Positions 41,283 through 54,179 of a stretch of 64,000 bases of DNA are shown one piece after another; position 1 is the first letter of the stretch; every line of letters starts with the position of its first letter. The position numbers and the translations under genes were made by a program. Origin of the DNA: Somniosus microcephalus (Eukaryota); NCBI GenBank assembly GCA_052327205.1, contig CM126220.1:10974001-11038000 (forward strand), in the 5' to 3' direction. A model generated the notes under the pieces. That model searched no databases. It saw only the letters and a list, made by a program, of their open reading frames with translations, and had not been told where the DNA came from.

Positions 41283-41955
41283 ATATAGTTAATAAGGCCA
41301 TAAAAAAGAAAACAAAGCACTGGGATTCATTTCTAGAGGGATAGAATTGAAAAGCAGAGAAGTGATAAACTTGTATAGAACCTTGGTTAGACCACACAGA
41401 GTACTGTGCACAGCTCTGGTCTCCATACTACAAAAAGGATATAGAGGCACTGGAGAGGGTGCAAAAAAGATTTACTAGGATGATACCAGAACTGAGAGGT
41501 TATACCTATCAGGAAAGATTGAACAGGTTGGGGCTTTTTTCTCTAGAAAAGAGAAGGCTGAGGGGTGACCTGATCGTGGTCTTTAAGATTATGAAGGGGT
41601 TTGATAGGGTAAACGTAGAGAAGATGTTTCCACTTGTGGGCGAGATCAGATCTAGAGGCCATAAATATAAGAGAGTCACTAATAAATCCAATCGGGAATT
41701 CAGGAGAAACTTCTTTACCCAGAGAGTGGTGAGAATGTGGAACTCGCTACCACAGGGAGTAGTTGAGGCGAATAGTATAGATACATTTAAGGGAGGCTAG
41801 ATAAACACATGAGGGAGAAAGGAATAGAAGGATACATTGATGGGGTGAGATGAAGAGGGGTGGGAGGAAGTTTGTGTGGAGCATAAACACCGGCATAGAC
41901 CAGTTGGGCCGACTGGCCTGTTTCTGTGCTGTAAATACTATGTAATATATGTAAT
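41283..41955 (+). mobile_element. CR1 LINE 3' fragment
   Basis: ORF 41459-41800 QKRFTRMIPELRG…RRNFFTQRVVRMWNSLPQ; same subfamily as the host of the 51.5-kb insertion. Confidence 0.93.
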
Positions 41956-50320: not shown

Positions 50321-51560
50321 GTCGGGCACAAACAAAATTCACCGTCAATAAACACTTTAATATCATAATTACTAAAGTTTTCAGTAGCTATGTGACCAAC
50401 AGTTAGAACTGTGGGGTTAGAACATATTAGTTGGAATATCATGGCCCTTAAATTCCTGGCCTTGGGAGGGCAGAACTGGGGCATACACAGGGTGTGGGAG
50501 GCCAGATTCCTGCCAGTTGCACCTGTCTTGTGACCAACCTAAAGTATGATGCAGGCATACTTATCGTAGAAAGGTGAAACTGGGGCCCACAATGCCATTT
50601 CCCAGGAGCACCAGGAGATTTAAGGTGTTATTTTTTTTTTTAATGTTCAGCTGCAATGTCCCAGCCCTCGACAGAGCAGAAAAAGTGTTGCAACAATACT
50701 TCTGGCCGCCCATAGGCAGGCACAGAGGGAGCACCATAAATGGCACCGATATCCACCCCCTAAACAACCCCATCCCCGGGATTTGCAACTCGTGGGTATT
50801 TTGCGAGCCCTAGCAATCTGCCTCACGAAGCACAAATAACACAGTTCTACCTGTGCTAGTATTTCCTTGCTTGTTGGTTTGTCCTGTTTGAACTTCATGG
50901 ACCTGGACTTTTGCAAAGGGCTGTTCTTAATGCTATTTGCTCATTGATGGATAAATCCTAAATCCTGAATCTGAATGCCAGGTATCAGCAGCTTCAGATG
51001 TATGCAGATTAATGAGAACATGGATTTAAACTTCACATGTTCCTGAGTTACGGTTATCAAACCATAAACCAAAAGCAGTTCATGGTTAGTCGTTCTGATG
51101 CTCATCCACCGTAGCAGTGTTTCTGTCCACTGCTTCACATTGTCTGTGTTGTGTTCCAGACTATCCATGGTCTCCCCCTTGTTTCCTGATTTTTCTTTTG
51201 AGCTGTTATACTGCTCAAGATTGCAAGAAAATTATGGGGCTAATTTAGAATTGATCTAACCCCAGCATCCAAAATACTACTTATTCACAGATTAAAAAAT
51301 AATTATAACTTTAGCCAATAGATTAATTTTTATAAACAAACAAAAAAAATGAGTACAGTAATGGGGGTTTGGCTGCTTGTTGTATTCTATTTATAACCAT
51401 CAGGAAAGACTGAACAGACTGAGGCTCTTTTCGCTTTTTTAGAAAACGGCTGAGGGGTGACCTAATAGAGTTCTTTAAAAATATGACGGTGTTTTATAGG
51501 GTAGACCTAGCAAAGACGTTTCCACGTGCGGGGGAGTCCAGAACTCGGTGCCATAAATAT

Positions 51561-51588
51561 GGCGGGAGTAACTATGACTCTCTTAAGG
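51561..51588 (+). rRNA. 28-nt fragment of 28S rRNA immediately upstream of the R2 insertion site (not a functional rRNA gene)
   Basis: GGCGGGAGTAACTATGACTCTCTTAAGG is the conserved eukaryotic LSU sequence that normally continues TAGCCAAATGCC. Confidence 0.95.
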
Positions 51589-51874
51589 TGGCCTGGGCTG
51601 GTGAGCTCTCGCAGTTCTACTTTGCGGGTGACTCCCGCGTGGCTTTGGTGAGAGCCCGCTCGGTATTTTGCTGGATTGAGTACTCCCTCATGCTTCCTTG
51701 AGTTGGTCTATCTGTGACTTCTTTAGGCGTTGCAGGGTAATTTCCCTCCCCCCGCGACTCCTGAGAAGTATCCAAGGTTACTAGTAACAGCGAGAATCTG
51801 GGGCTCTATATCGCTGCGAGTTGTACCTCCTAGTGGTCCCGCTGGGCAACACTTAGGTGTTGGCTGAAGCAACT
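51561..51874 (+). ncRNA. HDV-like self-cleaving ribozyme (R2 5' ribozyme), unit 1, apparently intact
   Basis: P1 GGCGGG(51561-66)/CCCGCT(51838-43) with G1.U wobble; P2 AGTTGT(51819-24)/GCAACT(51869-74); P3 ACC/GGT; L3 TCCTAGT; P1.1 CC/GG(51844-45); P4 CAACAC-TTAG-GTGTTG; J4/2 G-C51864-TGAA. Confidence 0.92.
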
Positions 51875-51895
51875 GGCCGAGAACCTCACTTTTTA

Positions 51896-52102
51896 GGTGG
51901 GAAGCAACCAAACCTCTCAACCTCTTCGGAAGTAGAGTGCCGGACCTTCGAGGACCTTTGAGGATCTCAGACCGGTTAGTCCACCGAATGTTGAGAGCCG
52001 CGGTTCGCAACCGTAGCTGCGGTAATCTTGCAGAGCTCTACGCCGCAGTGAGTCGTACCTCTGGGGTCCCACCGGCGGCCTGTGAGGGCAGTTAAACCGA
52101 CT
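51896..52102 (+). ncRNA. HDV-like fold, unit 2 (probably catalytically dead)
   Basis: P1 GGTGGG(51896-901)/CCCACC(52068-73); P2 AGTCG/CGACT; P3 ACC/GGT; GG; P4 GCCT-GTGA-GGGC. L3 is shortened (TCTGG) and T52092 sits at the catalytic-C position. Confidence 0.7.
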
Positions 52103-52123
52103 GGCCGAGAACTCTGCTAAATA

Positions 52124-52255
52124 GGCTGGATTGCAACTGAACTCCGTGCAACTTTGTTGCACTGATGTTGTAATAGCCACGGTGCCTTTGAGTGGTGGGC
52201 CGTGTGCGGGTCGTACCATTCGTGGTCCAGTCGGCGCTTTAAGCCTAACCAACTC
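52124..52255 (+). ncRNA. HDV-like fold, unit 3 (variant)
   Basis: P1 GGCTGG(52124-29)/CCAGTC(52227-32); P3 ACC/GGT; L3 ATTCGT; GG; P4 GCT-TTA-AGC; J4/2 C52245-TAA; imperfect P2 GGGTCG/CAACTC. Confidence 0.65.
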
Positions 52256-52838
52256 AAAAATAACTCAAATATTGGTTGGCGGCAACCATTTCCCCCCCGT
52301 AGGAGGGGTCAAGGAAAAAATTCATTTGACTCGTTGGAGTCAACTGTGAAGAGGCTTCAGTCAATTGCCTCAAGATTCAGTTTGGTCCTACCCGGCTGAA
52401 AGTTCCGCCACTTACAGCTTAATAGGCGTGAATAATGTCACATACCCTGGTACCAACCTAGGACTATCGAATCGGTGTCAAAGGCCAGTCAACGCCGTCT
52501 ACGCCTGGCACAGCGACCCCGGGACGCTCGTTCCAAAGTTGATGATATCGATTAGGGCAGAGGATTGACACCGCTTACTTTGTTAAAGTGTCTGTCAAAT
52601 CCAATGACTGCCCGAGAATCAACTGCCGGAGCCCCACGGGATGGGTATGGCAACCAAATTTACACATCAGATGATGAGGGATGACCATCATACTGAACGG
52701 TACTGGCTCAGTTCACTTACCTTGGTGGAGGCTTTCACGGTTGGTAGACTTGTATGGCCGTCGCAAGATCAGCCCAGTCCTTATAAGATCCTGGTTTTGC
52801 CGGCCACTTTGGTTGTGGTTAGCTGATGGACTTTTGCT

Positions 52839-52913
52839 ACGTGGACGAGCCACGTTAAGACTCAAAACGGACACTCACTTAATGGGGCTTCGGCCCCACG
52901 AGTGTGACAAAAA
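52839..52913 (+). other. R2-type 3' RNA module (pseudoknot + terminal stem-loop + short A tail)
   Basis: ACGTGG-ACGAG-CCACGT hairpin whose loop GAG can pair with CTC (52861-63); AAAA linker; ACACTC/GAGTGT stem enclosing TGGGGC-TTCG-GCCCCA; AAAAA. Confidence 0.75.
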
Positions 52914-54179
52914 TAGTCACTAATAAATCCAATAAATAATTCAGAAGAAACTTCTTTACCCAGAGAGTGGTGAGAATGTGGAACTTGCTACTACAGGTAG
53001 TGGTTGAGGTGAATAGCATAGATGCATTTAAAAGGAAGCTAGATAACTACATGAGGGAGAAAGGAATAGAAGGATATGCAGATAGGATTTGATGAAGAGG
53101 GGTGGGAAGAGGCTCGTGTGGAGCAGAAACACCGGCATAAAGACCTGTTGGACTGAATGGCCTGTTTCTGTGCTGTACATTCTATGTAATTAGCCGGACT
53201 TGGATCAAAAATATGTATGTGTAATGTATTTCAATACTCCACCAAACCATTGATTTCAATTGCCATTGTCAGAGATTTTTTACCCATTACCCTGAAGATC
53301 CACAGGGAGGGATGTATAGGGGAGAAAAGTACCTAAGAGCTCAGAGACAAATAGAAAACTAAGTGATGGGCTGGCGGGAGTGATAACAATTTACTATATT
53401 TTTTCTTGCTCAACACTGATGAAAGTCAGACAAATGGAATACATCGGGTAACAGAAATAAGTTTTATTCTGCTCCCTCCCCAAGAAAAACCCTTTAAAAC
53501 TACAGTTTTTGGGTGATGTGATACTATATACTTTCAGTTTTTACATTTAGATATCCAGGATTAGAATAAAACTATCCATCAATGCTTGCACCCCTCCCAA
53601 CATCAAAACCTATTCTATTACCCTTGCACCTACTTTACTGACTTCTTTGATACTCAGTACACCTGTCCTATAACTATAGAAAAAGTAGGATGTTTACATT
53701 ATAAAAGGAAAGATTGCCTATGTGTGTGCAATAAACGTGTTGGAATTCAATTTCAAGATCCTGATGGCATTCATAAACCAAGAAGTCATCATTAAAACTC
53801 CATGTCTTGATTTATAGCTCACTGGCAAAGGCATCTATTCTATAACTACAATTCAGGCAGCTGTAATTTCAGAACTAGAGGAAGGGAAGTGAATTGACAG
53901 TTGCACAGACAGCGGTGCACAGTCCCTTTAAGAGAAAGAAGCAGTCTGTGTAATCCATCTTTCTTGAATAGATCGGTTCAGTCTGCTCGCTGGCATTACA
54001 CCCTAAGCCACCTTAGGAGGTTGAAAGCGGCAGTTGTCCAGAGCGGCTCCAAAGCTGATTTGGAGGCTTAACAGTAACAAGATTGAGATTACAATGTGCA
54101 GAGGGTATTGCTCTTCGTTCATCATGGGAATTATGGATATCAAGACCTGAGAAAATCATCTTAGCACACAGTTTGCATG

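Follow-up and report, generated by a model that had tools for sequence, protein, structure and literature searches.

Tandem HDV-like ribozyme units, those downstream of the first predicted to be switched off, in a non-autonomous R2 element of Somniosus microcephalus

R2 SIDEs of Drosophila are non-coding elements in which a 5' HDV-like ribozyme is combined with the 3' end of R2 (PMC3414825; apart from PMC13343379, sources cited by PMC number are drawn on in part). Those described have one self-cleaving ribozyme, which compensatory changes have preserved, and come from rDNA, with copies at the 28S R2 site. Template jumping at the 5' end of R2 is known from the same source. Many R2 ribozymes cut at position -28, and according to a model for these the leader, which carries the P1 5' strand only, is duplicated to lengthen the 5' extension, the inner copy being expected to decay (PMC3774820). 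U at the catalytic position (C75U) abolishes cleavage by HDV ribozymes, and the engineered C75U mutants keep P1.1 and the double pseudoknot (PMC4227795, PMC13635239). An HDV-type fold raises the use of an R2 template, which the authors ascribe to stability; as a 5' module the fold itself, apart from cleavage, helps the protein-less template, and such modules were tested at the 5' end only and in single copy (PMC11331408). Chondrichthyan R2s have been catalogued in PMC13188248, the main text of which is without the word non-autonomous (one of its 16 supplements was covered in part), and ribozymes are not mentioned in PMC13343379. Within the part of the literature covered, outside subscription journals and repeat libraries, no description was found of an R2 passenger with HDV-like units that are tandem and non-catalytic.

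The window, the whole stretch of DNA that was analysed, is 64,000 nt of S. microcephalus (assembly GCA_052327205.1, contig CM126220.1, positions 10,974,001 to 11,038,000, forward strand). It holds a passenger with the following features.

51561..52913, + strand, non-autonomous R2-derived element (SIDE-like) of ~1.35 kb, inserted in a host repeat (non-rDNA)
51561..51588, + strand, 28S rRNA-derived leader of 28 nt, the first 6-7 nt being the P1 5' strand of unit 1
52697..52912, + strand, 3' end of the passenger, homologous to the 3' UTRs of both autonomous R2 families of the genome

No long open frame is present in 51561-52913, which has no coding capacity. The 3' end aligned with the two R2 3' UTRs at local scores of 95 and 58 (shuffle maxima 36 and 35). 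Both of these families, in a genome of 6.4 Gb, are located at the 28S R2 site and their frames encode RVT_1. The host repeat occurs without an insertion at 41658-41689 of the same window, and the passenger flanks match it there. G51561 is the predicted cut site (-28), the position known for many R2 ribozymes (PMC3774820), and stands 28 nt ahead of the 28S/R2 junction at 51588; the sequence upstream of it is host repeat, not 28S. The copy therefore begins at the predicted cut site of unit 1, in agreement with a sequence-only reading of this DNA that had proposed a full-length insertion from that site.

The element has the layout of an R2 SIDE (cf. PMC3414825). Unlike the Drosophila SIDEs, it belongs to a family with 2-5 tandem units of which the first alone is canonical, in a vertebrate-type genome and with many non-rDNA copies. 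Sequence of 28S lies upstream in 29/71 passenger-family loci, which places those copies at the R2 site of rDNA; the window copy and its nearest relatives are dispersed and not in rDNA. Searches with Rfam gave no gathering-level match within the window and, at E up to 10 over 51400-53000, three matches at chance level only. The units were assigned as ribozymes by how they pair, by the 28S leader and by their homology to autonomous R2 ribozymes, Rfam detecting none.

The units of the window copy were delimited as follows.

51818..51874, + strand, unit 1 core, canonical (P2 5' 51818-24, P2 3' 51869-74)
51825-27/51835-37, + strand, unit 1 P3, with L3 TCCTAGT of 7 nt
51838-43, + strand, unit 1 P1 3' strand, with GG at 51844-45, P4 at 51847-62 and catalytic C51864
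51896..51923, + strand, unit 2 start, with the P1 5' strand (51896-51901) within a decayed copy of the 28S leader
51896-51901 with 52068-52073, + strand, unit 2 P1
52017..52048, + strand, unit 2 J1/2 hairpin (52017-22 with 52043-48), also found in the autonomous R2 ribozymes of this genome
52050..52102, + strand, unit 2 core (P2 5' 52050-56, P2 3' 52096-52102)
52057-59 with 52065-67, + strand, unit 2 P3, with L3 TCTGG at 52060-64 (5 nt)
52074-75, + strand, unit 2 GG, with T52093 and T52092 as predicted partners in an extended P4 that C52076-G52091 would close
52097..52104, + strand, 5' strand of an alternative helix of 8 bp with 52227-52234, which would disrupt unit 2 P2 and unit 3 P1
52124..52130, + strand, unit 3 P1 5' strand (52124-29 pairs with 52227-32)
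52178..52204, + strand, unit 3 J1/2 hairpin (52178-82 with 52200-04), which differs from that of unit 2 by compensatory changes
52208..52255, + strand, unit 3 core (P2 5' 52208-14, P3, P1 3' 52227-32)
52218-23, + strand, unit 3 L3 ATTCGT (6 nt), without CC and beginning with A
52233-34, + strand, unit 3 GG, predicted to pair with C52245 and C52244

Judged by its letters, unit 1 appears to have every feature of a canonical ribozyme; 5' ends of the family cluster in its leader, with which its P1 pairs as in the R2 -28 ribozyme (PMC3774820). The defects read earlier in the other two units were recovered: unit 2 has T52092 where unit 1 has C51864 and an L3 of only 5 nt, and unit 3 retains the C yet has an L3 without CC. 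Since C stands at both 52244 and 52245, the catalytic position of unit 3 is C in either register. P1 and P2 of the outer pseudoknot are present in both units, the P2 3' strand of unit 3 being weakened by a private A52251. P3 is intact in both, and L3 is not of 7 nt as it is in every first unit. Neither unit is expected to present an unpaired catalytic C in J4/2, that of unit 3 being predicted to pair. The window copy differs from its three closest relatives (L002-L004) only at G52077, C52249 and A52251.

Copies were collected by DNA and pattern searches of the genome, with the DNA searches scoring the best 40 candidates only. The survey comprised 70 passenger loci with parsable units; L005-L010, which share flanks with L004, were excluded from all counts. 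A profile search yielded 146 units, 61 at first position and 85 downstream. This search misplaces the P2 3' strand in some rows, and those were judged by eye. Units were sorted by TCC, every TCC unit being the 5'-most of its element with a P1 strand that fits the 28S leader; L065 unit 1 was assigned by hand. Most loci were found with queries containing or flanking a downstream unit, a bias against one-unit elements. The copies are related, many rDNA copies being near-identical, and the counts are not independent events.

L3 has 7 nt beginning TCC in 61/61 first units (profile search), and CC at L3 positions 2-3 is found in all 61 of these vs 0/85 downstream units. By reading of the table, the catalytic C is kept in 56 first units, alongside four single changes and one deletion. 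Downstream units with 6-7-nt loops have the catalytic C in 70/71; those with 5-nt loops (n = 14) have T in nine and C in five. Of the inactivating changes that were to be checked for fixation, the L3 defect thus proved general, and the catalytic T did not. In the window's own subfamily T is found in 8/9 insertions, L004 having C with the short loop kept. As the catalytic T is not universal, the loop defect and the re-pairing described below are taken as the common causes. Intact downstream cores were sought in other copies and none was found among the 85 downstream units. Defects common to separate insertions pre-date the insertion of the window copy, as had been supposed, and post-insertion decay was ruled out as their origin. 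An extra base at J4/2-P2 was also considered as a downstream defect and was ruled out, being present in autonomous R2 ribozymes with a canonical L3.

Elements carry 2-5 units, of which 1-4 are downstream and 0-3 are middle units; five were counted in L025. At least one downstream unit is present in 52/53 full-length copies, and the exception (L047) breaks off inside unit 2. Autonomous R2 loci have one ribozyme each (9 loci in one survey, 12 in another). Loci L004-L010 (C3 and C37) represent one passenger insertion multiplied seven-fold together with its flanks by segmental duplication. They have lost ~105 nt of unit 1 J1/2, and their unit 2 has the catalytic C together with a G-to-A change in the GG.

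RNAalifold predicted that in downstream units the GG after P1 pairs with the catalytic position and the next base, via C40-G74. All three pairs of this P4 extension are possible in 77/85 downstream vs 1/60 first units, L013 unit 1 (a deletion) being omitted from the latter; position 40:74 is G-G in 57/60 first units. The median gain from the extension was -4.6 kcal/mol for downstream and -3.2 kcal/mol for first units, and in the window -1.3 kcal/mol for unit 2 and -4.2 kcal/mol for unit 3. Pairing of GG with 75/76 was also predicted in 22/25 distinct first-unit P4 regions folded alone; in first units P1.1 would compete with it. Observed pairing was reached in 197/500 shuffles, which gives no covariation support, and in neutral runs of 2000 it was reached in 0 at the full rate, 63 at half and 179 at one-third. 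The support for the extension is a conservation pattern, not covariation. The extension would account for the survival of GG without its L3 partner, for the C kept in last units and for the tolerance of C-to-U. With GG re-paired to the catalytic base, the likely shape would be one pseudoknot with a long P4, not a double pseudoknot.

Unit 2 is very probably dead, since C75U variants are inactive (PMC13635239, PMC4227795). Unlike the C75U mutants, in which P1.1 persists, downstream units have P1.1 predicted to be replaced by the P4 extension, and most of them keep the C. For unit 3 this is less sure, given that the P1.1 of a fast natural HDV-like ribozyme is non-canonical, with U:A plus C:U (PMC13635239). 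We infer from sequence that the downstream units are very likely catalytically off or nearly off.

Retained pairing was assessed in alignment A1 of 39 downstream units, which was not fitted to structure and has two rows one column out of register at P1. For the whole structure 87.3% of 1063 cells were paired, vs 29.7-40.7% with partners slid by 1-3 columns. P1 was 90.5% paired with 4/6 pairs changed on both sides (pair 4: A-U 13, G-C 10, U-A 9, G-U 5, C-G 1), P2 91.9% and the J1/2 hairpin 98.2%. P1, the J1/2 hairpin and the P4 extension were recovered by RNAalifold unprompted. A neutral simulation used a tree built from the columns outside the stems. At the rate estimated from that tree the observed pairing was reached in 0/400 runs for each of P1, P2 and the hairpin, at half rate in 10/400, 13/400 and 1/400, and at one-third rate in 56/400, 57/400 and 5/400, respectively. 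Double changes on the same branch numbered 13 against a null mean of 4.1 (P1 alone, 4 against 1.75, p ~0.04).

P3 (76%), inner P4 (76%, where gaps misalign P4) and P1.1 (74%) were no better paired than in the neutral simulation. CC as the partner of GG in P1.1 is missing from 85/85 downstream units; wobble versions are possible and no better than neutral. The claim of the sequence-only reading that the double-pseudoknot shape had been retained was therefore supported for the outer helices P1 and P2 and not supported for P1.1 and P3. The main P2 change is at CpG sites and could come from two common mutations. The P1 strands lie ~100-200 nt apart and differ from those of unit 1; P1 is the best evidence, as such pairing would presumably not arise by local repair or by conversion from unit 1. 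Identity between subfamilies is 76% for last-unit cores, 73% for the body and 88% for unit 1, and cores barely above the body count against strong selection. Taken together, the outer fold of the downstream units is probably under selection.

In a tree of 39 short cores (~115-nt sequences) the downstream units formed one clade (support 100/99), and all passenger units grouped against the autonomous ribozymes (100/100). The latter grouping does not support a mixed origin, in which unit 1 and the downstream units would stem from different autonomous R2 families. Inheritance of an array from the helper was not seen, each autonomous locus having one ribozyme. The starts of downstream units were compared with the 28S leader beyond the P1 strand and gave z >0 in 36/39 and >2 in 17/39 (in the window, z 3.2 for unit 2 from 300 shuffles and z 0.1 for unit 3). 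With this resemblance the units look like whole former heads. Unlike in the model of PMC3774820, whole ribozyme bodies have been duplicated here and the outer helices persist. Of six array motifs, five were absent from the part of the R2 table of PMC13188248 covered (first 400 letters per cell) and the sixth matched two unrelated places.

In two-unit lineages (rDNA subfamily, e.g. L060 and L014 unit 2) the dead unit has a P1 3' strand that pairs 6/6 with the 28S leader and only 5/6 with the unit's own 5' strand. In L048 and L095 a second, 5'-truncated passenger head abuts the 3' end of another copy, a join that is the expectation of template jumping or of insertion into a junction.

With roughly even confidence, units 2 and 3 are read as duplicated former 5' heads that are predicted to be off and are likely kept as stabilising single-pseudoknot folds. 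The elements have one canonical unit and 1-4 downstream units of one clade, mostly with a decayed 28S leader. Template jumping or recombination would have placed a second head 5' of the one already present, and copying of the whole would have been open only to versions with a non-cutting inner head. Loss of the L3 CC and a G40-to-C change are then predicted to let G38-G39-C40 pair with G74 and bases 75-76, so that P4 gains three pairs and the catalytic base, either C or U, is held within it. Pairing of P1, P2 and the J1/2 hairpin was thereafter kept by compensatory changes, as the alignments show. The least certain step is the benefit, which may be that an uncapped RNA free of ribosomes is protected in a general way and folds in a self-contained manner, with the duplicate strands kept away from unit 1.

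A stabilising role and some other role are given about equal weight. As a 5' module the catalytic-C-to-A mutant is severely inhibitory (PMC11331408), so a dead fold need not protect; the modules in this genome are internal natural copies, unlike those of that study. Middle units are dispensable (0-3 per element). It is proposed tentatively, at somewhat less than even confidence, that a ribozyme has been switched off by re-pairing of its active site, arrayed one to four times and kept as a structural module needed for R2 copying. If true, an RNA enzyme would here have been exapted as a scaffold, and R2-based gene insertion would have a stabilising module ready to hand. Dead enzymes serving as scaffolds are familiar among proteins, and a documented natural case for a small ribozyme, with its family history and a predicted means of locking, would be unusual. 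Cutting and protecting, both of them tasks ascribed to the R2 ribozyme, would be separated here, which engineered templates have not cleanly done, and natural non-cutting internal modules would be available to try in R2 gene-insertion work.

A rather unlikely alternative, though likelier than those that follow, is survivorship with housekeeping. On this view head duplications are frequent, an element can be copied whole only when its inner copies are dead, and all that selection does is to weed out versions in which stray strands misfold unit 1, with no positive role for the downstream units. Fresh tandem duplications of a dead unit (L066, L103), the variation in unit number between two and five and a last-unit core identity near that of the body all fit this account, and the covariation that speaks for selection weakens if the rate was overestimated. 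Deletions are common (L004, L016, L089, L102), yet no array-complete copy without the last unit was seen, and P1 pair 4 occurs as A-U, G-C, U-A, G-U and C-G across ~100-200 nt, both of which speak against this account. If the units were only tolerated leftovers, they would still show R2 5' ends growing by whole-head duplication.

An improbable role is that of extra binding sites, by which the downstream folds would assist in trans capture of R2 protein by the passenger, or would promote second-strand steps. The J1/2 hairpin beside P2 is common to all units and to the autonomous R2 ribozymes, and a passenger would presumably have to compete for protein; an avian A-clade protein, however, needs no 5' UTR for either cut (PMC12222951).

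Last-type units such as unit 3 might instead be slow rather than dead, as variant ribozymes with a wobble P1.1, which we consider quite improbable. The catalytic C in 70/71 last-type units, the conservation of G1, G25, G39 and A78 at 97-100% and a first P1.1 pair possible in 36/39 units of A1 are in keeping with it, as is the U:A plus C:U P1.1 of the fast natural ribozyme (PMC13635239). Self-cleaving Drosophila SIDE ribozymes also have a U-to-A change in the catalytic region, at a U left unspecified in the part of PMC3414825 covered. Against this, the P3 pair closing L3 is broken in 23/39, pairing between C75 and G39 explains why both are conserved, and the first P1.1 pair was matched at 36/39 in 9-31% of neutral runs. 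The 5' ends of copies bear on the same question. Among 71 loci there are 18 truncated copies. The 5' end is full length in the other 53, made up of 24 rDNA copies and of 29 dispersed copies that begin in the 28S leader or beside it. No truncated copy has an aligned start less than 11 nt from a downstream G1, the closest lying at -11 (L108) and -21 (L092). L050 is ambiguous, since its best alignment begins 34 nt inside the last unit while its first ten letters also resemble the start of that unit. There is no clear start at an internal G1, which argues against efficient internal cleavage in the RNAs that were copied.

The same 18 copies bear on the earlier suggestion that the units are 5'-3' exonuclease blocks, which had led to an expected pile-up of 5' ends at the downstream units. 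None was seen, and there is no sign of an exonuclease stop. L108 and L092 do start shortly before a downstream G1, and protection by a 5' ribozyme fold has been proposed (PMC11331408, PMC12222951), but both sources, in the parts covered, concern a 5'-terminal fold, and two near-hits among 12 truncations starting in or after the unit 1 core are about what chance would give (~1 expected, by a rough hand estimate). RNA trimmed to an inner unit would moreover yield headless copies that could not be copied again, so an internal block would bring little benefit to the lineage, and this role is regarded as highly improbable.

The remaining suggestion, a conformational switch in which the last bases of unit 2 pair with unit 3, we scarcely credit, because the alternative helix is confined to one lineage, with 7-8/8 pairs in that of the window and only 2-6/8 at all other junctions listed. 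GACTGG (52099-52104) does pair with CCAGTC (52227-32) as had been read, the helix actually being of 8 bp. The extended duplex was calculated at -19.4 kcal/mol against -10.2 plus -9.3 kcal/mol for the two helices it replaces, and its pair probability was 0.76-0.79 in a pseudoknot-free ensemble, a model that overstates this helix since it cannot form P1 and P2 together. For the whole 5' region such a fold cannot judge the native structure. Covariation cannot test a helix of single origin; the P1 of unit 3 itself shows compensation in the same lineage.

One spot of a common host repeat that resembles the 28S target holds at least six dispersed passengers and one autonomous-type R2 (window 51500-51560 and 52914-52980; L013, L014, L051, L054, L095, L128), and it is a natural off-target site for R2. 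In the autonomous-type R2 family L121-L132 (C1, C4, C6, C8, C12, C18, C19, C22, C24, C26) many 5' ends lie outside rDNA, most of these with the 28S leader first. Partial tandem duplication of the 28S leader was seen at the 5' junction of rDNA copies L057, L059, L076, L087, L103, L109-L112 and L114-L116; such 5'-junction duplications have already been described for other R2 elements cutting at -28. In one autonomous R2 family (L062:266-420 and relatives) a long frame crosses the ribozyme, with its ATG inside P4. Directly 3' of the last unit of the passenger, a motif at ~52268-52308 is conserved in all subfamilies, with 67 exact pattern matches in the genome, and it may form one module with that unit.
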